This document shows positions 15,694 through 59,591 of a stretch of DNA of 64,000 nucleotides, piece by piece. The position numbers and the translations under genes were made by a program. Source of the DNA: Candidatus Hydrothermia bacterium (GTDB taxonomy: Bacteria; Hydrothermota; Hydrothermia; UBA1063); contig JBNARF010000002.1 in assembly GCA_049719805.1 (NCBI GenBank), positions 15,805 through 79,804 of the forward strand. The letters run 5' to 3'. Positions within the stretch are counted from its first letter, which is position 1; each line of letters begins with the position of its first letter. The notes under the pieces are model-generated. The model ran no database searches. It was not told the DNA's origin and was given only the letters and a program-made list of their open reading frames with translations.

Positions 15694-17016
15694 ATGTATA
15701 AAAAAATTGCAAGGATATCGCTTTTGCTTTTTGCAGACTTATTGAGCTTTCATCTGGCACTTCTCTTAGCCTTTTGTACACGAATTTTTCTTGGAAGAAT
15801 TTTCGGTGCCAGGCTAATTCCCTTCCGTCAAACCATATCCCAATACACCCTTCTGGGTAGCTTGCCCCTGGTATTTGTTTTCGTATTAGCAATATTTGGT
15901 TTATATCACAAAAGGCGCTTTTTCTGGGAAGAGTTTAAGGAGTTTCTAAAAGCCATTTTACTCTTTTTTGTTTTTACAGTAACGGTTTTAAGCATTTTCA
16001 AAATTTTCGTAAAATTTTCAAGGATCGTATTTATTCTTACCTTCTTTTACCTGAGCTTTTTATTCCCTCTTTTAAGGTTATTTGCCAATGCTCTCTTAAG
16101 AAAATTAGGTATTTTTGAGGATTGCGTGTTTATAGGGAGTGAAGAATCTAAAAAGCTTTTCGAAGAGGAAATTTTGAAGAACAAATACCTCAATTTCAGG
16201 CTTTCAGAGAGTGGTGAATATGCTTTTCTTGCCAGTTCAACGCGTGACTTCGAGAAACTTCTCGTTGATTTACAAAGAAAGCACCGCTACGTTCTTGTTT
16301 TTGATGATTCGGAAAAGTTCCTCCCTCTGGAATTTAGGCTCTACTTCCCAATGGGCAAAGGCATTTTCCTTGCCTCCTTTGAAAACAGATTATTAGATCC
16401 AGTAGCTATGTTTGGAAAAAGATGTATAGACCTTGCAGTTGTATTCTTATTATTGCCTTTCTTCATATTGACCCTTGCTATATTTGGATTAATGATCAAG
16501 TTAGAGTCTAAGGGTCCTATATTTTACAAACAAAAAAGGGTTGGCTATGGAGGTAAAACTTTCGATCTTTTAAAGTTCAGAACTATGTATTGTGATGCAG
16601 ATAGAAGACTTAAAGAGATTCTGGAGAAAGACCCTCAAGCCAGAGAAGAGTGGAATAAGTACTATAAGTTGAAGGATGACCCGAGGGTTACAAAAATTGG
16701 AAAATTTTTGAGAAAAACATCTCTTGATGAGCTACCTCAGATCCTGAATATATTAAAAGGTGAGATGAGTTTTGTTGGACCAAGACCGGTGTTGCAGGAA
16801 GAGCTGGAAAAATACTATAAAGAAAACGCAGAGAATTACTTGAAAGTGAGGCCGGGTCTCACGGGGTTGTGGCAGGTTTCCGGTAGGAATGAGCTTGATT
16901 ATGAGAGACGCGTTAAACTTGACATGGTGTATATACACAACTGGTCTTTGTGGCTTGATATTGTGATCTTCCTTCAGACCTTTGGAGTGGTCATTAAAGG
17001 CAAGGGAGCTTACTAA
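15694..17016 (+). CDS. polyprenyl-phosphate sugar phosphotransferase (WbaP/EPS initiating 'bacterial sugar transferase')
   Basis: 440 aa. N-terminal TM helices. C-terminal domain RVGYGGKTFDLLKFRTM...DELPQILNILKGEMSFVGPRP. Confidence 0.85.
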   Translation: MYKKIARISLLLFADLLSFHLALLLAFCTRIFLGRIFGARLIPFRQTISQYTLLGSLPLVFVFVLAIFGLYHKRRFFWEEFKEFLKAILLFFVFTVTVLSIFKIFVKFSRIVFILTFFYLSFLFPLLRLFANALLRKLGIFEDCVFIGSEESKKLFEEEILKNKYLNFRLSESGEYAFLASSTRDFEKLLVDLQRKHRYVLVFDDSEKFLPLEFRLYFPMGKGIFLASFENRLLDPVAMFGKRCIDLAVVFLLLPFFILTLAIFGLMIKLESKGPIFYKQKRVGYGGKTFDLLKFRTMYCDADRRLKEILEKDPQAREEWNKYYKLKDDPRVTKIGKFLRKTSLDELPQILNILKGEMSFVGPRPVLQEELEKYYKENAENYLKVRPGLTGLWQVSGRNELDYERRVKLDMVYIHNWSLWLDIVIFLQTFGVVIKGKGAY

Positions 17017-25006: not shown

Positions 25007-28000
25007 GTGACTAACGAGTTTGTGAATTTTCATGGAAGATACCCTATTATTTTTTCCATGATAAAAAGTCGCTTCCTAAGGTTGTGTCCCAATTGCGGTG
25101 GTGATATTACCGATGAAAGGCTTTTTAAAGGTCTTCCCTGTCCGCGCTGTTTGCCAGATGAAGGGTTACCTTTAAAGGATGGTCTAAAATCTGGTGAGAT
25201 TTACGAATTTCTCAAGGTGCTTAATGAAGTAACATCGTGGTCTACCCATTTCGAGGCGCACATGAAATCATCCCCCTGGGGACTTCAGACTGCCTGGGCG
25301 AAGAGGGTTTTCCTTGGAAGATCCTTCGCATTACTTGCCCCTACCGGTGTGGGAAAAACTTCTTTCGGGGTCTCCATCGCCTCTTTCTTTTCCCTTAAAA
25401 ACTTTAGATCGTACATCATAGTCCCGACAATAATTCTTGTAAACCAGATCACGGATAAGCTACTTCAATTTGGCGTTCGAGAAGAAGAAATTCTTTCCTT
25501 TGGAGGAGAGGAATCCAGAAGTGAGTTGAAAGCAAAGAGAGATAGACTCAAATCGAGAGACTTCAGAATACTCGTTTCTACCTCAATGTTTTTATATCGA
25601 AACTATAATGATATTCCCCCGGACTTCGATTTCGTTTTTGTTGACGACGTGGATTCTTTCCTCAAAACAGCCAGAAATATAGATAAAGCATTGATAATTC
25701 TGGGCTTTGATTCGAAGGATGTTCAAGAGACTCTTCAATATATACTATTTAAAAGAAAGCCAAAGAAAACCAGTGATGACTTTGAAAAGTTAAGAGAATG
25801 GGAGGAGAAGATTAAAGATATTTCTCGAAAACGCAGGGGAGTACTTGTGGTATCCTCAGCAACATCAAGTCCTAGGTCCTTTCGTGTGGAACTCTTTAGA
25901 GAGCTTCTCGGCTTTGAAGTGGGTACCCCCACTTTTTATCTCAGAAACGTAGAGGACTTGTACGATCGTTCAGGTGAAAAGAGCCTATTTGAGTGGATAA
26001 AGACCCTGGGCAAGGGTGGACTTGTTTTCCTTTCGGCTGACCAGGGAAAAGAAAGGGTTAAGGAAGTGGTGGCGGAACTTGAAAGCAAGGGGATAAGGGC
26101 AGTTTCTTATGAAGATATCGATGATCTTGCCATCCGGGATTTTGAAGATGGTAAAATTGACGTTTTTGTAGGAATTGCCTCCTATCGAAATCCCCTCTCA
26201 AGAGGGTTTGATTTACCTCATGTAATAAGGTACGCAATATTCCTTGGCGTCCCTAAAATAGTTATTTCTCTGAAGATTGAGACCAATCCTACACATCTTC
26301 TCTGGGCACTATCTTCCATACGGAAACATCTTGCCAGAACCAATCCCGCGAAACTTAAAACCATAGATATTTACATGCAGAGGTTGAAAAAATTGGAAAA
26401 TATTGATCTAAAGAAATTGCCTGAAAATTCTTTGGTAAGGTCGAGATTTGAATCTTTGAGAAGGGAGGTACTAGAATTACTTAACTCTGCTGATGTTGTG
26501 GAATTTATGAAGGGTTCCTCTGAAATTAACTTAAGGCAAACTCCTGAGGGATTGGAAATGATAGTATCGGATGCCACCGGTTATCTACAGGCCAGCGGAA
26601 GAACGTCCAGAATGTATGGTGGGGGAATAACCAAGGGATTAAGCCTGATACTTGTGGATGATGAGGCAGCTTTCAGTCACCTCGTGAAAAAAGTGAAGTG
26701 GTTCAATGACGAAATCGAGTTTAAGGACGTTTCTAATGTGGATTTGCGTTCGATATTGGAGACCATTGATAGGGATAGGCAGACTTTAAAGGCGTATAAA
26801 GAGGGCAAAATAAGCGTAGAGAAGAAAGATCTACTAAAGCCCGTACTAATAATTGTGGAGTCACCCAATAAGGCTCGAACTATTGCTCGATTTTTCGGGA
26901 AACCCATAAGAAGGAAAGTGGGGACTCATGATCTCCTTGAGACATCGGTGGACGACAAATATCTTATAATTACTGCCTCACTGGGGCATGTTCTGGATTT
27001 AAATAAAGAGGTAGGATATCACGGTACTTTAATAGAAGATAAAGTAGTTCCCGTTTATGAACCCATAGAAGGGAAGGATGAAATAATTTCAAGTATTAGA
27101 AAAATGGCTATGGAATGTGAAGAGGTGCTCGTGGCTACTGACCCGGACACTGAGGGAGAGAAGATAGCATGGGATTTGTATGGACTGTTAAAGAGTTTTG
27201 CTCCGAATATTTGGAGAATGGAGTTTCATGAGGTGACCCGGAAGGCTATTCTGAACGGGCTTAGAAATCCCAGAGATTTAAATTTTGATCTTGTTAAAGC
27301 TTAGATTCTGCGGAGAATTTCAGATCGATGGGTGGGTTTTGAGTTTTCGGAATATTTACAGAGGAGATTCGGTAAAAAGAGTTTATCAGCAGGAAGGGTT
27401 CAGACCCCCGTTTTAGGATGGATAATTGAAAGGGAGAAAAAATACTACAGAAAACTCTACAAAATAGAGATTTATATGGGGGTAGGTGAACGCAAACTAA
27501 AGGTGGATTTTACATTTTCTGATGAAGACGAAGCCAGGGAGTTCTATGAAAATCTGGAAACCATTGAGATTTCAAAAATTGAAGGTAAAATTGTAGAAGT
27601 TAACCCTCTTCCACCTTACAGAACAGATACAATGCTGCAGGATGCATCTAATAAACTGAAATTTTCCCTTCCCAAAACCATGGAGCTGGCTCAGGATCTT
27701 TTTGAGATGGGTTACATTACATATCACAGGACAGATTCCGTAAGGGTTTCAGACGCGGGCATTAAAATTGCGAGAGAAATAATTGAGGAGGATTTTGGTA
27801 AAGAGTACTTTGTGCAGAGGAGCTGGGGTGAAGGGGGTGCTCACGAGTGTATTAGACCTGCCAGGGCTCTGGATCCTGAGGACCTGAAATCCCTTGTATT
27901 TACCGGTGAAACCGAGTACCTGAGCTATGATCACCTCGCACTTTATGAAATGATTTTTAAGAGGTTTATTGCCAGTGAGATGAGACCTGTTAAGGTGAGG

Positions 28001-28507
28001 GAACAACATGTGGAAGTGAAAGCACTTAATCTGAAGCAGGAAATAAAATTAAGGGTAGAAATTCTGGAAGATGGCTGGAATAAGGTTATTCCTTTGCATC
28101 TTGATCCAGAGCTCCCGTCGTCAATCAACGTTACAAGAAGCAAAAGATTTAGAACTGTTCCTGAGGCTTATCCATATACTCAGGGAGAACTGGTCTCAGA
28201 AATGAAAGAAAAGGGTATAGGAAGGCCTTCAACTTACGCCACCATCATTGAAAAACTTTTCGAAAGGTCCTATGTCATTGAAAAAAATGGATTTTTATTT
28301 CCCACTCATCTTGGAAAAAGAGTTTACGCGTTTTTGAATGCCAGAGAAAAAATCAGGGCCTTTGTCTCGGAGGAATTCACCAGAATTCTGGAGAAACTTA
28401 TGGACGAAGTTGAGGAAGGTAAAAAAGATTATCAAGAGATACTTCTGGATATTCTGGATAAGATGAGAGAAATCAGGAAAGAGCAGGGTTTTGCCAGTTT
28501 TGTATAG
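25007..28507 (+). CDS. rgy: reverse gyrase (helicase-like + topoisomerase IA), interrupted by a single in-frame TAG at 27302-27304
   Basis: N-terminal Zn finger CPNCGG...CPRC and Walker A APTGVGKT. TOPRIM IIVESPNKARTIARFFG, DPDTEGE, SAGRVQTP and active-site GYITYHRTDS. Total 1166 codons in one frame. The TAG sits where topo IA has AQQARR (here A*ILRR). True start probably the ATG at 25058 (MIKSRFLRLCPNCGG). Confidence 0.85.
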
Positions 28508-29268: not shown

Positions 29269-32200
29269 TTACTTTATTTTTACCTTATAGATAAAATAGC
29301 TGCTTTCTCCAGGTTTTAATACAGGGATAGGGCCCGGGGAATTGGAGTCAAGGTTGTACAGGTCTATTCGCAGGAACAGTGATCCATTTATATTCATAAT
29401 CCAGGCACCATCGGAATTTGTATCCTCGTTCTCTTCAGCTCTTAGATAGATTACAGTAACCCCGTCGGGGTAATGAAATTCTATATCTTTTGCTACTCCG
29501 AAAGCACCATTTACAAGTATCACCCAGGGATTAATAGGGTCGGTTATGATAATACTGTCAATATCTGCGATTCCGATATTTTTAAATCTAATTGTGTATG
29601 AGACAGTATCTCCCGGCCGTGCCTGTGCCTTATCCACCTCTTTTTTAAGACTTAAAGGTCCGGAAATAGTGGTTATGTCCACTACTTGACCTGTGTCAGT
29701 AATGGAGTTCTGGTTGGCGAAGGTGAAATTCAATGAAAACTTTGATATGTCCATACTGCCTGGTGTTGCATTTTGTGGTATAAAAGCCCTAACAAAGATA
29801 TACATCGTGTCAAATGGTGAGAGCGTAAAAGAAGGGGAAATAATAGTGTCGGGATTATCAAGCACACCATTTTTATTCACATCTTCTATAAATATCCATG
29901 TCCAGTTTTGAGTGCTTGACTGATTTATGCTTATAGTGCCTTCAGTACCTGAGATTATGATGTGTGGGTAATATACAGGCACGCCCGGCATTCCGGAGCC
30001 TGAGTTGTCATTCTCAAATACTATTCCCATCACGTCCCCAAAATTATAATTGGAGTAAACAACCCCTGAACTAAAGGTGGAAAACTCAACAGTATCAGCT
30101 CCCATAGGATTGCCGGAAACTCCTCCATCATGGTCACCCGTTGAAATGTAATCGGGTTTATTTTGCTCTACAAGATAAAAAGGCGGGGTTACGTCATAAG
30201 GAATCCAGAGCGTATAATCGCCGTTGTTGTCTGTAAGGGTAGATGCAATTAAATTCCCAGAAGCTTCGGCGAATACCAGAACTCCATTTATACCCCTTTC
30301 GCCGGTATCATAGACTCCATTGTTATTAGTGGATAGGGAAGCATTCTGTGCGTCGTAGAATACCTTACCAGTTATTCTGGAACCGTGATAATCGCCGAAA
30401 TACACATAAATATCAGAGGAAGCCTCCCAGTTTACCTCCTGCACGTTCGGTGTGGTGGATACGTAACCTGGAGGGTCTCCGCCAATTTCTGGATTAGAAC
30501 CTGCATTGTTATTAAAATCCTCTATAATTCTGTAAATACCAGTGTTAATGGGTGAAAATTCAAAGTATCCACTGCTATTACTCTCTATAAAGCTCTCCTC
30601 CTGCCAGTTTGTTCCATCAAAATACCAGAGCTCGATTCTCACACCTTCAATACCTCTTTCGGCATTATCCATGGTAAGATTGTGGTTTTGGTCCTCAAAC
30701 ACAAATCCCTTTATCCTGTTGGCGATAACTATTCCATAGTTGGCAGAAAATTCGCTGGTTCCGTAGTTTGGATTTGTTGCGGTAGCAGTAATGGAATCGT
30801 CCTTGGTAAGAGTTATGTATGATGGGACATTTATGTCACAGTTAAAAGTTCCGTCACTTTGCGTAATGCAGCTACCTATGTACCAGTGCCCTTCCCCATG
30901 AGGAACTCTCAACCCGTCTCCCTGAACAATTTCGCCCTCCTGAACCCCATCGTGGTCTGCCTTGTACACTTCAATGGTGAACACATCGGAGATGTGAGAA
31001 GATGGAGTGCCGACAAAACCTTCCACATGGAGTTTGGAGCCTCTTAGCTCAACCTTTGTGAAAATGGGATAGTCTATCCCGTAATTCTGCTGGTTGGAAT
31101 TTAAAATGCCGTCATTAGCCGTAACACTATCACCATTGGGGTTCACTGATCCATCTGTATGGGTCTGGTCAAGGTCAATGGAAAGAAGGCCATTGTTGTA
31201 AAAAGCATTCTGGCTTAAGATATTTTTCCGTGAAGGCTGTCTCAGGGTGCCAGTCTGAACTGCTACGACTGCAACGGCGTTTCCGGGAGCATCATGGATA
31301 ACGTTGTGTTCTACCAGGCTTCCGTCCCCAAATATTCTAATACCACACAACTCAAGATTAGTAGGTTGTTGACCACAGTAGTTTCCATGCTCATCACCCT
31401 GCCCTGTAAACCTTACAGTGTTTTGCCTCCACGTGTATGCACCTGTCGCCTGCCATGATTCAAGTCCATGTGATGCAACATATTCAATATAATTGTAATT
31501 TGCCTGGGCATCATTTCTGTCCCTTACATTTGTTGTACCCTCAAAGGTTATGCCATCTCCACAGGCACTCTGCAGAGCAATATGAGATAGGTAATTTCTT
31601 TCAACTATGGCAAGCCCCGGAATATAACATCCTGTTCCATTAACATAAGCGATGTAGTTGTGGAGTATGCATGCCTGCTGGTTAGCTGCGACATATACCC
31701 CATACTGGCCTCTGTAATCCAGGGTAGGGTCTCTGCCATCCGCTCTCACGCTGATAAAATTGTCACTTATGGTATCATTCGTTCCAGTCCTGACATAAAA
31801 AAGGTTAGTACTGTTGTTGAAAATGCCGATGTGAGACACTCTACAACCTGATGCACGAAAATCAATTCCCACTCCTCTATCATTTACATCAATTTCAAGT
31901 TCTGGTTTCTCAAACTGCGGAAGTACAGTCTCATCACCTGTACCAGGCACTCCGTCAGGGCCTGTACCCACCGGCTCTGGCGCGCTTATACCTCCAGGGT
32001 TTTCATCCCGGAGAGTTGAACCATCGGAGTAATGGTAGGCAGTTCCATCCACAACGGTCTGATTATCCGTTAATGCAGGTAAAGCTCCAAGAGAGGTGTT
32101 TAGTGTTACCTTCCACCAGTTTCCACCTCCACCTGACTCGTTTGTGAAGACCACTGGTACAAAGCGCATTACGTTTTTGCCTGTTATAGCATTGGCATTC

Positions 32201-51492: not shown

Positions 51493-52915
51493 TTTTAAAC
51501 CAGAGCATCTTACAGCGTTTATAAGGAACGGAGTTTTGGATACGCTTTTCGATGAACTTCTCTCCGGATTCTGGAATTTCTATCCCGATGTTCAGTTTGA
51601 AATTGTTAAAAGATTTGAGAATTTTAGTAAAAAGGACGACCTGGCTTTACTTCTTGTTAAGCACTTTGAGATTCCCTTTGAGGACGCCCGAAAACTAATT
51701 AACGGCCCGCGGTTTTATTTTAAAATACCAGCGTTTTTCGATGATATTCTGCAATTTGTAGATATTATTTTGATACCTGAAACCTCAAGAATTATGACCA
51801 ATTTCCTGGAGATAACAGACTATTTAGAGATCATCGGGAAATGCTGTGGGAAAAAGTTTTTTATATTTTTTGATAAATTCTTTGACGACGAGAGTTTTAT
51901 GCTGCAGGTAGCCACAGTATTGAGGCTAGGTAATGTACCTGACCGCTACTGGTTTTTGGGTGCGATTGATGGTAAGTGCAATATTTTGCCCATTAAGAAC
52001 CTTGACTTGAAATTGCCTCTGATGGAAATTCAGGGTAAGAGAGGGATTTCTTACCCTCTGGCAAAGAATGTGAGGGACATTGAAAGATGGTTAAAAATTG
52101 AGACACACCACATACCGATTTTGATTATTGAAACTAATAATGGAGATGCAGGCGATCTTTTTGCGAATTTTCTGGGTATTTTAGGTCCTGAGGCGGAAGC
52201 CTCCTTAGGTGCTTTAAAAGCACTCTTCGGAATAGACGAAGATAATCTAATATTTGTTTTCCCGGGATTTGATGGAAGAGAAGAATGGTGGGAAAAATTT
52301 TCTGGTTTTTGTGCTTTTCTCAGGAAGGTGGAGGGCATCACCAGGGGAAGAATGCATTTTCACTTCGGGATTAAGAGCTCTCCCGGACTGGCTATGGCTT
52401 TAGGTATTTTATTTGGCAGCATGATACCCTTCTCGATTTATGATTTGGAAAAGCTTAAATTGTGTAGTGTGGTGAGCAATGTGCGGGAGTTAAAGACCCG
52501 GGTTCCTGACTATAAAATTAGGCATAAATTCGAATTGAAAAATCAAAGTGATGCTATTGTATATTTTAGACACAGGGAAGCTTCGGATTTACCCATAAAG
52601 AAGATTCAAGAAAGGCTGGATCTTATGGATGCGTCTATTGTTTCCATATACTTGAGGGGCAAATTATCACAGTGTAGGGTTAAGTATGTGGAGGTGGTAA
52701 AAGGTGTAACGTCTTTTATTCAGGACCTGCGCAAAGTTCATCCCTTTGGGAGATTCCACTTTTTCCCCAATATTCCCGCAACTTTATCATTTCTTCTGGG
52801 TGTATCTCTGGGGCACTACATGGAAGGAGTTATTTACAATTTTAACAGGTTCACGGACTCCTGGGGAAGGGTGTTGACCTTTTCAGATCTCAAGAGGTTG
52901 AGGGAAAGGTCTTAA
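51476..52915 (+). CDS. hypothetical protein, paralog of 57633-59093; triplicated Rossmann-like beta/Gly-loop/helix motif (candidate CARF/SAVED/SLOG-like sensor fusion)
   Basis: 479 aa. Shares EDARK, SFML..., ERWL...H.P... motifs with the 57633 protein. Also shares MHFHFGIKSSPGLAMALGILFGSMIPFSIY (cf. YFHLAIKGPIPLGFALGIIFGSMLPFTIY) and FHFFPNIPATLSFLLGVSLGHY (cf. FHFFFSSPVSLAFLLGVVFGHY). Confidence 0.6.
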   Translation: MFRFIDFKPEHLTAFIRNGVLDTLFDELLSGFWNFYPDVQFEIVKRFENFSKKDDLALLLVKHFEIPFEDARKLINGPRFYFKIPAFFDDILQFVDIILIPETSRIMTNFLEITDYLEIIGKCCGKKFFIFFDKFFDDESFMLQVATVLRLGNVPDRYWFLGAIDGKCNILPIKNLDLKLPLMEIQGKRGISYPLAKNVRDIERWLKIETHHIPILIIETNNGDAGDLFANFLGILGPEAEASLGALKALFGIDEDNLIFVFPGFDGREEWWEKFSGFCAFLRKVEGITRGRMHFHFGIKSSPGLAMALGILFGSMIPFSIYDLEKLKLCSVVSNVRELKTRVPDYKIRHKFELKNQSDAIVYFRHREASDLPIKKIQERLDLMDASIVSIYLRGKLSQCRVKYVEVVKGVTSFIQDLRKVHPFGRFHFFPNIPATLSFLLGVSLGHYMEGVIYNFNRFTDSWGRVLTFSDLKRLRERS

Positions 52916-54809
52916 AATGCGGGATCTAAAAATTTTATTTATGCTGGGAGAAATAAAAAGGCCGGTTTAACAAAATAGCGGAAGTACTTCCTTAATTTGC
53001 CCAATTAATTAAGCAAAGAAAAAGAGGTGTAATATACTACTTTCTTGAATGTGTTTTGCCGGGGTGGGGCTTCAGTTAAATAGGGTGCAAGTTTATGAAT
53101 AATAGGCAGTATAGATTTTAGTAAGTACGCTCTTGGGGTTAAAAAGTCTGGGAGAACCGTATCTTAAGGGGTAAGGACAAAATTTTTCCCTTACAGAAAA
53201 ATAAATGTTTAGACTGAAGTTCAAAATCAATGCCAGAATCATTAGAATCAAATTCTGATCCAGAACAATAATCCCTATACTGAAGCTATAAAACTTCTCG
53301 TCCTCGTAACGGGATGCCGAATTATAAATGCAAAATCAAGCCATTTCCGCTAAAAGTACTTTCAAAAATTCAGAGCCTGTGGATAACCTCGCTGAATTTG
53401 TAAGAAAAGGTATCTAACAAAAGCCGTCGAGCAGGTTTTACCTTGTTAACTTCTTGCAGGTTATACCATCCTTTCAAACCTTACCATTACAGTGGATAAC
53501 GAGCGAAACAGGTGGAGAGGAAAAATATGGGGCAAGTTGTGTAAAAAGTGACTCTGGGTGAACATGTTTTGTTTCTGGAAACTTAGTTAGAGCGAAAATC
53601 GAGCTTTTTAAGTTTACGGATAACCAAAACACCAGGGAAAACGTTGAAGGTGGTGCAATTGTGTAATCTTAACTGGGGACCAGTTAATGACAATGAGCAA
53701 AAACTTTATTGATTCTGGAGTTATCTTCTCGGACTTTGCCGCCCGGGAACAATTTATCGTTTAGATTGGTGTCCAGTTCTTAAGTTCTAACAGGTAGGAA
53801 TGCGAACAATAGCAAGACACAGATCGCTGTTTAATAGATAGTAAACAAGTTTGGCCTGTGAAAGAAGATTTACCGGAAGCAGGAACGGGATCGTTTTGAT
53901 GAATACGTTACTGTTCTTAAAAATGTGAGGTATTTTTATGGCGATCAGACTTACCCGCGGCATTTCGGAAATCTAACGAAAATAGTTGAGGGGTAGAAAA
54001 TCAAAGAGGGTTAAGGAGTAGTGGGAGTTGGAAAACAACAGGTTTAACAAGGAGTATCTGGTTTTATGAAATCGGAATCAAGATGCTTTTCAGGGAATAT
54101 AGTTTGTGTTATAAGTATCGTTTTTACTCCTTACTGAACAATGTGCTTATGATGTCTGGTGGGACATAGACTTTGTGTAAAGTTGAGACCTTGCGGCAAT
54201 ATTTTTTTTAAATAAAGATTTGATGGGACGTGACGCTGGTTGTATCAGATTTACCAAAACTTCAAAGTATTCTTAGTTTTTGAAGATAAAATTATGCGGG
54301 TGATAAAGATCGATATTGTGCATAACATGGGCACTTCTTCTGGGTTTACCACGTCTCAGGCTGAAAGGAGTGAAAGCCATTTATTTTATCAAAATAACGG
54401 ATATACAGGCTCGGGTGGATCTTGGTACTGCCAAAATTTGCCTTTAAACGGGTTCTAAGGGCTTTTATTATGGAATATCCGTGGATATTGCCTGATTTTA
54501 GGATTTTTGCCATTTTAATAAAGCTTTATGCCTTAGTTATTTTGATGATTGACTAACCGATGGATGCACGAAAGTTAATGCATAATAAATCCGGAAAGTA
54601 ATAGAAAGCCATGAACCGCGGGGCACTGTTATGATAAATATTGTTTACCAGACTTTGAGTTTCTTTGCTTCATTTTCTTATACTGCTTTAAACGCTATTT
54701 ACTCATGTCCAATATTTTTTCTGCCCCGGGAAGGCTTTAATTCTACGAAAAATTAAGCCTTCCTTGACTCGGACTTTTTTGAACATTAACATTTTTATAA
54801 GTTCTGTTT

Positions 54810-55562
54810 ATGAGACTCAAGCTTACTTTCAAACCCGTTTCTGATTATATAGCCCTACCCATTCACTATAATCACATGGTTCAGGCTTTCATTTATTCGT
54901 CCCTAGAGCAAGACATCGCAAACTGGCTTCACGAAAAGGGGTTTGAATACGGTCCCGGGAAATTTAAACTCTTCACTTTTTCCTGGATATTCGGGAAGAA
55001 AAGGATAGAGAGTGGTCGATTTATTTTCTACGATAGATTCTGATTCTTTATATCAAGTCCTGTGGAACAAATGCTTGAGTCTTTTGTTAAAAAATTTTTT
55101 CAAAAAAGCAAAATAGAATTTGGAGGTCAGGAGTGTCTCCTGGAAAGCGTAAAAGTGGAGCCTGCAAGAGAACTGAAGTCTTCCCTTGTTATTCGCATGA
55201 TTTCTCCGATTACCGTTTATTCCATTTTTGGGAAGGATGGGAGGAAGAAAACTTACTACTATTCACCCTTTGAAAAGGATTTTGAACGTTTAATATTAGA
55301 AAATTTTGAATAAAAGGTTGAGGCTTTTTATGGAAAAGGCGATTATCCGGAGTTGAAAGATGCCCACCTGCAACCTGTAGATGTAAAAGGTGAGGATTTT
55401 CACATTGTGAAATTTAAGGGATTCATGATAAAGGGTTGGTCTGGTATTTATAAGTTGGACCTTCCGGAGCCTTACCTTTCTATAGCTTATTATGCTGGTA
55501 TTGGCAGCAAAAATTCTCAGGGTTTTGGAATGTGGGACGTTTTAAAGGAGCTTAAGAAATGA
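54810..55562 (+). pseudogene. cas6: cas6 (CRISPR repeat endoribonuclease) interrupted by two in-frame stops (TGA 55041-55043; TAA 55311-55313), no frameshift
   Basis: Three consecutive ORFs in the same frame. N-terminal MRLKLTFKPVSDYIALPIHYNHMVQAFIYS is a Cas6 ferredoxin-like start. C-terminal G-rich loop AGIGSKNSQGFGMWDV. Combined length 251 codons, the size of Cas6. Confidence 0.65.
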
Positions 55563-55619
55563 ATGTCAAATTTTTAAATTTTTGGGGTTATATGGTAAAT
55601 GAAGAGGGAGTTCTAAATT

Positions 55620-55910
55620 ATGGGTATAAGGGATCGGGAATTAAGCGAAAGGGAAAGGATAGCCCTGGGTGCATTATTACATGATATTGGAAAAGTGGTG
55701 CAAAGAGCCAGCGATAATCCAAGCGCAAAAACCCATCAGGAATTTGGCGAAAAGTGGATAGAAAGTCATTTGCCTGCTCCCCTGGGCGGTGAGTTGAAGT
55801 TTTTCTCTAAATATCATCATTTCAATCCAGAATCGCATCCAGAGCTGGATGTTAGTATACCGTGAAGGAACGATTTAATACTTGTTTTGCATGCCGCTGA
55901 TTGTACTTAA
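55620..55910 (+). pseudogene. cas10/csm1 N-terminal HD-domain fragment (in-frame TGA at 55863-55865; rest of gene missing)
   Basis: LGALLHDIGKVVQRA...KTHQEFGEKWIESHL...KYHH resembles the Csm1/Cas10 HD N-terminus (LLHDIGK + QRA). After the TGA the same frame continues as RNDLILVLHAADCT (HD motif V-like). Only ~96 codons, against ~750 for Cas10. Confidence 0.5.
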
Positions 55911-55936
55911 CTTTTTCAATTTTAAGAGGCAGTGTC

Positions 55937-57301
55937 ATGAAAATTCTTATTGGGATAATTGGAGATTTCTATAAATACCAGGTTTTTAAGTACACGAATA
56001 ATGGACAAGAAATAGACGCAAAATGCTCGCTTTTCGCACTCATGAGAATGTTAAATCCAGATTTAACTTTGTTGGTAGTTCTTGATAGTCTGGTTGACAT
56101 TCTGAATAAAAAGTACCCTGAGCTAAAATCCTCTAATTCGTACATTGAGTTAAAAGGCAGATTAGTGAAGGTAGTCCGCCAGGGGCTCCTATCGGAAAAA
56201 ATTGTCACCCAAGAAGAGTTGAATGAATTTAAGGTGAAATTTTTAATTATACCTTCGGTTGGTTCTTACGGAGATTTGCGTTTTAAAGGTGAAATTACCG
56301 ACTTTTACTACGAATTGTACTATGGAACTGGTCTTAAATTCGCTGGATTGCTTGCGGGCATAAAGAACTTTGAGGAAGATGCGGAAATATTTTTTGACGT
56401 TTCTCTGGGTGCCAATTACACGAATGTTATACTTTATAAAGTTTTGAGGGAGTTGGCAGCTATATTTTCTCTTTCCGGAAGGAGAGTAAAACTAAGAATT
56501 TTAAACACTGAACCAATTATCCCTTACAGAGAAAACTCGACGTCAGCTTTAAATGAGATCGAAGCAGCCGAGTTCCGTAAATCCCTGACATTTTCTACTA
56601 GAAAACTCAAAGGTTCTGAGTTACCCCTTAAAAATATTTCAAAGGAGTATGTGAAAGCTAAAGAAAACTATAAAGAAGAGTTAAATTCCCGTGGATTGGA
56701 CTTGAGGTTAGGGAATAGGGATGTTTCGTGTTTTCTAAGTAGCGTAAAGAACGGTATTCCTCTTGGTGTATATTACTTTTTCCCGGATATTTCACTCTTG
56801 AGTAAAGTTGCCAGATTGTCATACAAGTTTTATTTGAAAAGCGTTAAGTTTCACAGGGATGAAAGCTTGATCATCGAAAGGGGACTAAAGTTGACACCTT
56901 GCTTTAAGACTTACGTTCAGGCTATCTTAGTGGCTCAGGCCTTGAGTTCTTTGGGGGTGGAAAAAAGAGAAAGTGTTTTGAGTAGTGAAATAGAATCTCT
57001 GTCGGAAAAGCTATATGAAAGGTGCAAGGTTATTGGGGATAGAATTAAGCAGGAAATTTCGCGTCTTAATAAAGAAATAAGAAACTACCCTAAAGCCAGA
57101 TGGAAAGTGATGGGAGAGGAAAAGAGCAGAGGTAATACGGTTCGAAATTTCTTCGCTCACGTCGGAATTGTCAGAAATTTGACGGAGATCTGGGTAGAAG
57201 ATGAGAAGTCCAAAGTTTGGAAAGTTAGATTTAGAAAAACGGAGGAGAGTATTAAGCAGATTGCAAACTTCCTCCTGAATGCTGCCGATGAGGCGGAGTG
57301 A
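55937..57301 (+). CDS. CARF-HEPN family protein (Csx1/Csm6-like cOA-activated RNase)
   Basis: ORF track starts at 55901 (TTG). The ATG at 55937 has an AAGAGG RBS. Begins MKILIGIIGD (CARF-like first strand). C-terminal HEPN motif VRNFFAHVG matches RNxxAHxG (R-X4-H). About 455 aa. Confidence 0.6.
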   Translation: MKILIGIIGDFYKYQVFKYTNNGQEIDAKCSLFALMRMLNPDLTLLVVLDSLVDILNKKYPELKSSNSYIELKGRLVKVVRQGLLSEKIVTQEELNEFKVKFLIIPSVGSYGDLRFKGEITDFYYELYYGTGLKFAGLLAGIKNFEEDAEIFFDVSLGANYTNVILYKVLRELAAIFSLSGRRVKLRILNTEPIIPYRENSTSALNEIEAAEFRKSLTFSTRKLKGSELPLKNISKEYVKAKENYKEELNSRGLDLRLGNRDVSCFLSSVKNGIPLGVYYFFPDISLLSKVARLSYKFYLKSVKFHRDESLIIERGLKLTPCFKTYVQAILVAQALSSLGVEKRESVLSSEIESLSEKLYERCKVIGDRIKQEISRLNKEIRNYPKARWKVMGEEKSRGNTVRNFFAHVGIVRNLTEIWVEDEKSKVWKVRFRKTEESIKQIANFLLNAADEAE

Positions 57302-57632
57302 AGTGATGATACAACTGTCCAGTGATCCTTATGATCTGATACACTTCACAAATTTTCGCGGTTCAGGCATTTTAATACTTTTTGGGAGTAAAGAGGATCG
57401 GGTTAATGATTGGCGTGACTTTGGCTGAGAAATCCGATCAAAAAGGCGTATCTGCAATTTATTGTTATAGCTACCGCTCGAAAGGAAAACGGGCAATTTT
57501 GCTTTTTTGTGGTCTATGCATCAGGGTATCATTTTGCTTTTATATGGCATGAGCCGAAGAATATCATATGAAGATATAAGCATTTTTAAGATAGTTGTTC
57601 ATTAAAAATGCCGGGATTAAAGGAGGTACTAG

Positions 57633-59093
57633 ATGAAGCACTGGTATGAGTTAGATACGAATCAGTTTATTGAGCACCTCGAATCGGGTGGGCTGAATGA
57701 TTATCTTGATGAAATCATAGAAAACTTCCCTAAATTTGCCGATAAACCTGAAGTGCAATTTGAGCTGATAAGGTATATAAAAGAAAAAAGGCCTCCAGTT
57801 TCTCTCACCACCTGGGTAAAAGGTCTGGGCATTTCTGAGGAGGATGCTCGCAAAGTCTATAATAATCCCTATCGGATAATGAACTATGTGGTGATTCACG
57901 GAGAAAGCGGCGAAATTTCTCAGATGTTAATTATAAAGAATACAGGCAGTCTCATTACGAATCTTGAAAGTGTGAAAAAAGATCTGGAAGTGATCACATC
58001 TTATGTGAAATCAAATTTTGCCGTTTTTTTCAAAACTCCTTTCTATGGACAGAGTTTTATGTTACCCTTAACGGTGGGGCTACTTGTGGTTCATATTCCA
58101 TCGAATCTAGTGTTCACCGGCAAGGTAGATGAAAAGGGAAAGGTTTACGATGTGGAGGGTGTATCCATTAAAAGAAAAGTCGCACAAAACTCAGGCTATA
58201 AATTGATAGATCCCTCTATTGTCCCTGATGTTTCCTTTATTAAACGGTGGCTAGATGCAGAGATTTACCATGTGCCACTGTGCGTTACATATTCGAGTGG
58301 TGAGCCCGCTACTACGGATTTTGAGAGGCTTTGTGATTCCATTTCAGGATTCGATAGAGAAACACTTTTGGTGCTCAAGGAATTTATGGACATCGATACC
58401 TCACTTCTTATTGTATCTACGGGAACTATGGAGAGTAGAGAGGACTGGATTAATTCCCTTAACAAATTTCGTAGAGCTATTGCAGTCATAAACAAAAAAC
58501 TCCAGGATCGTGTATACTTTCACCTGGCAATAAAAGGTCCCATTCCTCTGGGGTTTGCTCTTGGTATTATTTTTGGAAGTATGTTACCCTTTACTATATA
58601 CCATTTCCAGAATAATCAATATTTTCCCATAGAGGTCTCAGATGTAAGATATTTGAAGGGGCGAGTCAAGGAACAAAACTACGATCCTTTAGTGGTTAGC
58701 TTTATAGAAGGAAATGGTGGTGATGTGGCAGTGGTTATCTCCATGTCCCACCATGAACCCCTTGCCACTGCAAAAAGTTTTTTAATTCAGAGATTTGGAG
58801 CGACACCCTCCATTCTCCTCCTTGAACATCCTCTGAAGGGTGATGTGCCTGTTGAAGAGTATTTTGAGGTTGCAAGGAAAATGGCAAGTGTTATTCAGGA
58901 TGTTCGGGGAAAAAGATCCGTTGATAAATTTCACTTTTTCTTCTCATCGCCCGTAAGCCTGGCGTTTCTCCTTGGTGTTGTTTTTGGGCATTACGGCTCT
59001 GCGGAAATTTATCATTACGATAATAAGAGGCAGACTTACATAAATGTTATAAGCCTTGATGAATTGAAGAAAATAAGAGAGAATTCATATTGA
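57633..59093 (+). CDS. hypothetical protein, paralog of 51476-52915 (same triplicated motif), immediately downstream of csx1-like gene
   Basis: 486 aa. GGAGG RBS. Motifs as listed for the 51476 protein. Conserved C-terminus ...ISLDELKKIRENSY vs ...TFSDLKRLRERS. Confidence 0.6.
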   Translation: MKHWYELDTNQFIEHLESGGLNDYLDEIIENFPKFADKPEVQFELIRYIKEKRPPVSLTTWVKGLGISEEDARKVYNNPYRIMNYVVIHGESGEISQMLIIKNTGSLITNLESVKKDLEVITSYVKSNFAVFFKTPFYGQSFMLPLTVGLLVVHIPSNLVFTGKVDEKGKVYDVEGVSIKRKVAQNSGYKLIDPSIVPDVSFIKRWLDAEIYHVPLCVTYSSGEPATTDFERLCDSISGFDRETLLVLKEFMDIDTSLLIVSTGTMESREDWINSLNKFRRAIAVINKKLQDRVYFHLAIKGPIPLGFALGIIFGSMLPFTIYHFQNNQYFPIEVSDVRYLKGRVKEQNYDPLVVSFIEGNGGDVAVVISMSHHEPLATAKSFLIQRFGATPSILLLEHPLKGDVPVEEYFEVARKMASVIQDVRGKRSVDKFHFFFSSPVSLAFLLGVVFGHYGSAEIYHYDNKRQTYINVISLDELKKIRENSY

Positions 59094-59108
59094 GGTTTCT
59101 AAAGGAAT

Positions 59109-59591
59109 TTAATACATCTGTTTGATGGGTAGCAGCAGGGTCGTTGCAGTGGTTTGACCACCATCAAGGGTATAGGTCAGTATAAGTTTATATGTTCCTT
59201 TTCTTTCTTTTAAAGCTACTTTTACCTCGGGGGTTTGCTGCTCTTCAGGAACGGGAATAAACTTCTCGAGATTTCTTGAGGACCTCGCTCTTATTCTAAC
59301 TGGATTTTCAATGAACTTTCCGCCGGATGCCAATTGGTTGTTAATGTAAAACTCGTAGTTCATTGAATTTATCTGGATGTCGCCACTCGTGTTGTTCTTT
59401 AACATGATTTTAAAAAGCATATCAATTTTGTTAAGCTCGATGGAGGCCAGTTCACAGGAAATGGGGGTAATTCTCAGAATCTGTCTTCCTGGAGAGGTTT
59501 TAATAGAGGCGCAGGATATCAAAAACAGAAGGCTAAATATTAATGCCCTCGATACGGAGTAAATATTTTTTCCACTCAGCACCACCGCCAA
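59109..59591 (-). CDS. hypothetical lipoprotein
   Basis: 160 aa. Lipobox LISCAS. The 5' end overlaps the upstream gene by ~59 nt, so the true start may be an internal GTG/TTG. Confidence 0.45.
   Translation of the reverse strand: MAVVLSGKNIYSVSRALIFSLLFLISCASIKTSPGRQILRITPISCELASIELNKIDMLFKIMLKNNTSGDIQINSMNYEFYINNQLASGGKFIENPVRIRARSSRNLEKFIPVPEEQQTPEVKVALKERKGTYKLILTYTLDGGQTTATTLLLPIKQMY

Follow-up and report, generated by a model that had tools for sequence, protein, structure and literature searches.

A stretch of 64,000 nucleotides from a Candidatus Hydrothermia bacterium (positions 15,805 to 79,804 of contig JBNARF010000002.1, assembly GCA_049719805.1; hereafter the window, to which positions refer unless another locus is named) carries two genes of the calpL type. 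The analysis centred on the second of these, P2, an orphan calpL at 57633..59093 (+) encoding a protein of 486 amino acids (aa) with an N-terminal domain (N-domain), a Lon Ser/Lys protease and a SAVED domain. Between 49.0 and 59.1 kb the order of features is a relic CRISPR, an operon in which a small gene, calpS and calpT are followed by P1, the other and divergent calpL, then 1.9 kb of featureless DNA, a cas6 pseudogene, a stub of cas10, csx1 and P2.

How CalpL works, by forming a filament with a composite ring-nuclease site and by cutting CalpT in trans, was established between 2022 and 2025. Known CalpLs bind cyclic tetra-adenylate (cA4) and then stack into filaments (PMC11417357; bioRxiv 10.1101/2024.05.08.593097; bioRxiv 10.1101/2025.07.01.662501), the same three sources providing the residue roles used below. 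Within a filament, CalpT that is docked on a protomer's N-domain is cut by the Lon site of the adjacent protomer, and cA4 is degraded at a composite site to which one protomer contributes its pocket and the next its Arg/Lys face. CalpL is rare, being found in 17 of 1113 type III loci in one survey, and is usually accompanied by further cA4 effectors, Csx1 for instance, being "seldom found alone" (Hoikkala et al. 2024, PMC11229360). A literature search found no report of paired CalpL paralogs, and the one paper on Hydrothermia and CRISPR contained nothing on type III.

The orphan calpL and its product

The reading frame of P2 starts with ATG, has an in-frame TAG directly before it (57630-57632) and runs for 486 codons with no internal stop. 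It is separated from the end of csx1 at 57301 by an intergenic region of 331 nucleotides (nt) (57302..57632, +), and this region carries GGAGG at 57622-57626, the ribosome-binding site of P2, 6 nt before the ATG. A promoter and terminator scan around P2 gave no signal above that of shuffled sequence and a search for flanking repeats suggestive of an insertion found none that were convincing. Both the guanine-plus-cytosine (GC) content and the codon usage of the gene are host-like (r = 0.85).

Profile searches with P2 gave full-length matches to CRISPR-Lon (378 bits) and CARF-Lon (397 bits) of PADLOC, an end-to-end match to SAVED_LON from the same collection and a match to SAVED of Pfam (1e-28). 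Among PDB sequences CalpL 7qda (E = 4.5e-30) and AcrIII-2 9r8s (E = 3.1e-39) were matched, and the best full-length PDB matches of both P2 and P1 were CalpL 7qda/8b0r and CCaCalpL 9eyi. The AlphaFold2 model of P2 has a predicted local distance difference test score (pLDDT) of 96.6 and a predicted template-modelling score of 0.92; a Foldseek search with this model placed CalpL 7qda first (template-modelling score 0.78), with CCaCalpL 9eyi also among the top matches. The CalpL architecture of an N-terminal helical domain, a Lon-type protease and a SAVED domain at the C terminus is present in P2 and P1 alike. That P2 is a genuine and structurally intact CalpL, a SAVED-Lon effector of type III CRISPR signalling, is virtually certain.

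All eight mapped functional residues are canonical in P2. The Lon dyad S141/K180 aligns with S152/K193 of SsCalpL, in columns that were invariant in 66 sequences and read S/K in 87/88; H324, H374 and S438, which belong to the cA4 pocket and ring-nuclease site, align with SsCalpL H345, H392 and S451; the stacking face R339/K342 aligns with R361/K364; and Q422 is the equivalent of Q178 in AcrIII-2. When conservation was scored by leave-one-out, P2 kept 35 of 37 near-invariant subfamily positions, the only changes being F233L and A450V. Its identity to relatives in the N-domain, Lon and SAVED domains (32/36/39%) has the typical profile of the family, for which the means are 33/38/42%. P2 gives no sign of relaxed constraint.

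The subfamily to which P2 belongs is made up of CalpLs from thermophiles (WOR-3, Aquificaceae, Thermodesulfobacteriota). The nearest homologs, from WOR-3 bacteria, are 40-41% identical, and there are no closer relatives apart from clonal assemblies; with the CalpLs that have been studied P2 shares only about 21-25% identity. SsCalpL (Sulfurihydrogenibium sp. YO3AOP1; 7QDA, 8B0R, 8B0U) and CCaCalpL (9EYI-K) have the same three-domain architecture and the fold predicted for P2, and like P2 they combine the Ser/Lys dyad, the pocket His/His/Ser and the Arg/Lys face with an association with type III CRISPR genes and with Csx1. Unlike these proteins, P2 has no adjoining calpT or calpS. The best PDB sequence match of its SAVED domain is AcrIII-2 (9R8S), in which H128, S194, R96, K99 and Q178 correspond to H374, S438, R339, K342 and Q422 of P2. 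However, AcrIII-2 is a viral protein of 236 aa with neither N-domain nor Lon domain, whereas P2 is a full-length cellular CalpL of host-like composition. A stand-alone SAVED ring nuclease would consist of SAVED only, and in P2 the N-domain and Lon domain are complete and well conserved; SAVED-only relatives do exist, e.g. P0019 (240 aa, 44% identity). P2 is a member of the known CalpL family in an unusual and partly decayed setting, and not a new system.

What sets P2 apart is its neighbourhood. Comparison was made with 24 related loci from about 16 distinct lineages, the locus search being run with the subfamily alignment. Wherever DNA upstream of calpL exists in such a locus, the gene immediately upstream is calpT, usually in overlap with calpL, and the usual order is small gene, calpS, calpT, calpL. 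The combination that defines CalpLTS, calpT and calpS adjoining calpL, was found for P1 and not for P2, which has a clean ribosome-binding site in place of the usual calpT overlap. None of the 24 related loci contained a second calpL within 6 kb. To judge from its residues, P2 appears to have everything needed for the known CalpL steps except a cognate substrate gene. Another orphan CalpL-like protein, P0068, is encoded in locus L033 (10001-11470; GCA_054021375.1) among housekeeping genes, with no calpT/calpS or cas genes nearby; it has Thr in place of the catalytic Ser, and its SAVED pocket and stacking residues are also altered.

The divergent paralog P1 and its operon

P1 (51476..52915, +, 479 aa) closes a run of four overlapping genes on the + strand, which together occupy 49493-52915. 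Its end-to-end PADLOC matches to CRISPR-Lon and SAVED_LON fall at 206-226 bits (CRISPR-Lon 206), its PDB match to 7qda has E = 1e-14, and its AlphaFold2 model (pLDDT 92.4, with a dip in confidence at residues 361-400) also returned 7qda at the top of the Foldseek search. The Lon dyad S140/K179, the stacking face R337/K340 and the Gln Q416 are all kept. The pocket is not, since D323, R367 and N432 stand where His, His and Ser are expected; these three residues are conserved at 86-96% in the family, depending on the aligned set, and P1 is alone in its clade in having all of them replaced. P1 keeps 24/35 near-invariant positions, the worst of 30 sequences in the leave-one-out comparison, and among its changes is G138D, which lies two residues ahead of the catalytic Ser. 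The identity of P1 to relatives is flat across the domains at ~28%, and its excess divergence therefore sits in the normally best-conserved SAVED domain.

The first gene of the operon (49493..49864, +, 123 aa) has no assigned function; its product is 28-31% identical to the products of the first genes of loci L001 and L003 and matched no Pfam, NCBIfam or PADLOC family. A small gene of 123-145 aa precedes calpS in roughly ten related loci of thermophiles (window 49493-49864 (+); L001 8121-8522; L003 7007-7435; L004 2018-2437; L006 8122-8553; others), likewise with no Pfam, NCBIfam or PADLOC family; it may represent a fourth constituent of the CalpLTS operons of this CalpL subfamily. The second gene (49857..50627, +) is calpS-like, its product resembling helix-turn-helix (HTH) and extracytoplasmic function (ECF) sigma-like proteins: it matched the PADLOC HTH profile at 2.7e-9 and NCBIfam sigma70-ECF below the cut-off (E = 0.0035), and its position matches that of a gene of 212-227 aa in the relatives. 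The third (50611..51492, +) is calpT-like and would encode the anti-sigma factor that is the substrate of CalpL; it matched PADLOC CRISPR-T (6.4e-11) and Unk_02 (1.3e-17), and the sole PDB match of its product was a weak one to CalpT10 of 8b0u (E = 0.47). This gene, for which there is an alternative TTG start at 50575, overlaps the start of P1 by 17 nt. The operon at 49493-52915 has the same make-up and order as the CalpL-CalpT-CalpS operons of about 16 lineages, together with the conserved small gene. It differs from them in that its own P1 is without the pocket His/His/Ser, and P2 lies outside any such operon.

The CalpT of the window is 25% identical to that of L001, and its CalpS has no detectable match there; for comparison, L001 and L003 share 39%, 33% and 26% identity in CalpL, CalpT and CalpS respectively. 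The window CalpT and CalpS have thus diverged in step with P1 and are therefore its partners rather than leftovers of P2.

P1 and P2 lie on the same strand, 4.7 kb apart, and align end to end with 29% identity (E = 8e-57), far beyond chance; in the N-domain their identity is only 24%. The non-synonymous divergence (dN) between the two genes is 0.84 (NG86) and the synonymous divergence (dS) is not computable, identity at 4-fold sites being 0.23 against the 0.26 expected from composition; dN/dS between the pair is uninformative because the synonymous sites are saturated. Neighbour-joining trees placed P1 on a very long branch and recovered P1 and P2 as sisters in 0/200 bootstraps, whereas a clade of P2 and the WOR-3 sequences without P1 appeared in 119/200. 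P2 is 40-41% identical to the WOR-3 CalpLs and 27-29% identical to P1, and about a dozen representatives of 50%-identity clusters are nearer to P2 than P1 is. Divergence, saturation and tree together make P1 and P2 deep paralogs and not the products of a recent duplication.

Much of what had been proposed for this gene pair is borne out. The original prediction described P1 and P2 as paralogs, both full-length and stop-free, with P1 as the last gene of a separate four-gene operon, P2 about 330 nt 3' of a CARF-HEPN gene on the same strand with its own GGAGG, and neighbouring cas genes broken; each of these statements agrees with the present data. The duplication that it read from them does not stand, given the dN, the 4-fold identity of 23% against 26% expected and the bootstraps, and the equivalence of the two copies that it implied is not supported. 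By their residues the two proteins are not equivalent, P2 being canonical and P1, the most deviant member of its clade, having an altered pocket and a disproportionately diverged SAVED domain.

Receiver genes, sensor genes and the rest of the window

The csx1 gene upstream of P2 (55937..57301, +, 454 aa) is intact. It encodes CARF and HEPN domains, the latter with RNFFAH as its R-x4-6-H motif, and matched Pfam Csx1_CARF (1.5e-22) and Csx1_HEPN (1.1e-5) as well as NCBIfam TIGR01897 (143.6 bits, cut-off 110). Translation probably begins at the ATG at 55937, the start given in the annotation of a sibling assembly; the mechanical open reading frame (ORF) starts at TTG 55901. The association of Csx1 with CalpL is usual in multi-effector type III loci (PMC11229360); unlike those loci, this one has two CalpL paralogs and no Cas10 cyclase.

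The cas genes next to csx1 are damaged, by nonsense codons and deletion and not by frameshifts. The cas6 pseudogene (54810..55562, +) is one frame of 251 codons interrupted by TGA at 55041 and TAA at 55311, with the Pfam Cas6 N- and C-terminal matches spread over its three pieces. All that is left of cas10 is the HD-domain N-terminus (55620..55910, +), consisting of 81 codons (the HD ORF proper, 55620-55865), TGA and ~14 further HD-like codons, and the start of csx1 follows immediately. This remnant matched Pfam HD and, over profile positions 1-53 only, PADLOC Cas10 (7e-11); the cyclase part is absent. The 64 kb window is without csm/cmr, cas1 or cas2 genes, and a search of the window for remnants of cas1, cas2 and csm2-5 returned nothing above noise.

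Upstream of the P1 operon a relic CRISPR (49059..49158, +) is made up of two repeats and one spacer, that is a perfect 30-nt repeat (GTTCAGAGCCTACCTGTAAGGAATTGAAAC, at 49059-49088), a spacer of 44 nt and another repeat copy shortened by a 4-nt deletion (49133-49158). The repeat is unique in the window, had 0 matches in the genome contig collection and scored 31.3 bits (E = 0.011) against Rfam CRISPR-DR2, below the gathering score of 37; an Rfam scan of 48000-59500 gave nothing else. Related repeats form arrays of 5 to >80 copies in 7 metagenome contigs from JGI (L010-L016), from other organisms, and the relic repeat belongs to a genuine repeat family. Between the P1 operon and cas6 lies the ORF-free stretch of 1.9 kb (52916..54809), in which there was no ORF of more than 80 aa, no repeat, no Rfam match and no recognisable trace of a gene, and whose stop-to-stop fragments gave no PADLOC matches. 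It sits in an otherwise compact genome and may be cas DNA that has decayed past recognition.

The sensing half of the system (array, cas6, cas10) is thus lost or decayed while six receiver genes, namely csx1, P2 and the four genes of the P1 operon, are intact. Three disruptions fall in the 348 codons of cas6 and the cas10 stub against 0 in the 2091 codons of the six receiver genes, and conditional on there being three the chance that all would fall outside the receivers is (348/2439)^3 = 0.003.

A second metagenome-assembled genome (MAG), the sibling assembly, covers the region in contig JBNATJ010000002.1, and differs by 3 single-nucleotide polymorphisms (SNPs) in 21,440 bases (99.986% identical), with all lesions common to both. 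The SNPs lie at 47382, 52388 and 52866, the latter two in P1 (L305 synonymous, G464E) and 0 in P2.

Other genes of the window that were scanned were housekeeping genes or without a family match, and three of the remaining features deserve mention. Reverse gyrase (25007-28507, +) contains a single in-frame TAG (27302-27304) in a conserved topoisomerase motif (...LVKA*ILRRISDRWVGF...), giving an ORF at 25007-27304 with zinc finger, helicase and Toprim and another at 27332-28507 with the topoisomerase; the break is either a nonsense mutation or the boundary of a two-piece enzyme. On the - strand at 29269-43467 there are three ORFs (942, 2359 and 1421 aa) in one frame, split only by TAA at 40639 and 33535, which may be one gene for a protein of ~4700 aa with two in-frame stops or three genes sharing a frame by chance. 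An ORF of 305 aa downstream of P2 (59533-60450, -) fuses HPPK (folK) with both O6-methylguanine-DNA methyltransferase domains, an unusual fusion.

Possible roles of P2

P2 is probably still functional, contingent on a source of cA4 outside the window. The preferred account, for which belief and doubt are evenly balanced, is that P2 is still selected as a second cA4 receiver, fed by cA4 made outside the window and acting in trans on the CalpT/CalpS of the locus. By analogy with SsCalpL and CCaCalpL, the SAVED pocket of P2 (H324, H374, S438) would bind cA4 supplied by a type III complex encoded elsewhere, and P2 would then stack head to tail through R339/K342. Stacking would activate the Lon dyad S141/K180 and the composite ring-nuclease site, which would later destroy the cA4 and so limit the signal. 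P2 would act in trans on the only CalpT/CalpS pair that the locus has, perhaps within filaments shared with P1; such action is plausible because the Lon site that cuts CalpT in a filament belongs to a neighbouring protomer. It is from the conservation of residues that we infer cA4-dependent oligomerisation, CalpT cleavage and cA4 degradation by P2, and its present-day activity, cA4 source and substrate are part of the same inference.

A number of observations weigh against this account. There is no calpT or calpS next to P2, and tblastn with four sets of CalpT, CalpS and small-protein sequences matched only the P1 operon, with no remnant of a second copy in the 64 kb. The sole CalpT of the window has co-diverged with P1, being 25% identical to the CalpT of the relatives of P2 where ~33-40% would be expected; this, together with the 24% identity of the P1 and P2 N-domains, makes it doubtful that P2 recognises it. 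No cyclase-competent cas10, csm/cmr genes or working array lie within the window, and close relatives are lacking, the nearest homolog of P2 being 41% identical and a database search with csx1 at E <= 1e-20 having returned none but itself. The contrast between damaged cas genes and intact receivers is weak when P2 is taken alone, (348/834)^3 = 0.07. P2 is carried by three assemblies, GCA_049701535.1 and those with MGB9916704.1 and MGB9910761.1, and because these are clonal they offer no population evidence on it.

The original prediction had argued for function rather than decay from the retention of duplicated genes next to components of cyclic oligoadenylate (cOA) signalling. The argument from duplication fails. 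What favours function is that P2 and the other receiver genes are intact and that P2 shows no sign of relaxed constraint; the strength of its ribosome-binding site and the clear definition of its start are a signal for expression. The proximity also holds in part: P2 adjoins intact receivers (csx1), and as there is no cyclase gene in the locus it is next to other receivers and not next to the source of the signal.

The most serious competing explanation, rather unlikely in our estimation, is that P2 is a relic, the last gene of a second CalpLTS/type III module otherwise deleted, intact only through shortness of time and now functionless. The locus is visibly decaying, with two nonsense codons in cas6, a stub of cas10, a CRISPR of two repeats and the ORF-free 1.9 kb, and P2 is without the partner genes present in all relatives examined; for P2 alone against cas6/cas10 the p is only 0.07, and nonsense codons elsewhere in the window, such as the TAG in reverse gyrase, point to appreciable drift in this population. 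However, none of the 37 near-invariant positions of P2 carries a radical change, its eight functional residues are all intact, its host-like codon usage indicates long residence, and all six receiver genes survive beside heavily damaged cas6/cas10 (p = 0.003). A deleted module would also have to have gone with no trace of its calpT/calpS, leaving P2 with a clean ribosome-binding site instead of a calpT overlap. A recent import of P2 from a mobile element or virus, e.g. as an anti-CRISPR-like degrader of cA4, has next to no probability. The likeness of its SAVED domain to viral AcrIII-2 and its standing as a solo gene with its own ribosome-binding site are all that suggest one, whereas the full three-domain CalpL architecture, the lack of convincing flanking repeats and of mobile-element genes and the grouping with CalpLs of the same phylum speak for the opposite, and host-like GC content and codon usage show that P2 is not a recent arrival. 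Hardly more probable is a recent local duplication leaving two redundant copies or a dosage effect. Two stop-free genes of one family, 4.7 kb apart on the same strand, speak for it, but an identity of 29%, a dN of 0.84, saturated synonymous sites, 0/200 bootstraps as sisters, the greater closeness of P2 to CalpLs of other members of the phylum and the differing key residues all contradict it, and it was rejected on the divergence data.

Two further explanations take P2 as functional. That its main role is now to remove cA4, as a ring nuclease or sink, and so to switch off Csx1 and the P1 module, whose own ring-nuclease pocket is degenerate, its protease domain being left with no substrate, is improbable. 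In its favour P2 keeps both faces of the composite site (H374 and S438 with R339, K342 and Q422) where P1 has lost the essential His and Ser, the SAVED domain of P2 has viral AcrIII-2 as its nearest relative of solved structure, and there are SAVED-only relatives such as P0019. The dedicated SAVED ring nucleases that are known have lost their protease domain, though, and such a role becomes less likely because P2 has conserved its Lon dyad and all its near-invariant positions in Lon and N-domain no less well than CalpLs with partners. Unlikely too is a split of labour within one filament, P1 and P2 forming an obligate heteromer in which P2 would provide the pocket, ring-nuclease and Lon site while P1, which is without the pocket residues but keeps the stacking face and has co-diverged with CalpT/CalpS, would cap cA4-loaded P2 and present CalpT for cleavage in trans. 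This would be the natural counterpart of the experiment in which mixing SsCalpL H392E and R361E restores activity, and would account for the retention of a canonical CalpL without partner genes next to a CalpLTS operon that is complete but deviant. It is without comparative support, since three other pocket-degenerate CalpLs (P0056, P0068, P0128) had no second CalpL in the available flanks, the contig of P0056 being 4.8 kb.

Whether or not P2 is the second cA4 receiver proposed here, the locus offers a canonical CalpL separated from its substrate genes beside a CalpL with a full operon, a changed pocket and an unchanged stacking face. If the two do not cooperate, it is a snapshot of a type III system losing its sensor genes before its effectors, which is useful for annotation and unsurprising. 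If P1 and P2 do cooperate, this would show that a SAVED filament can be a heteromer and that paralogs can share out sensing and substrate docking between them.

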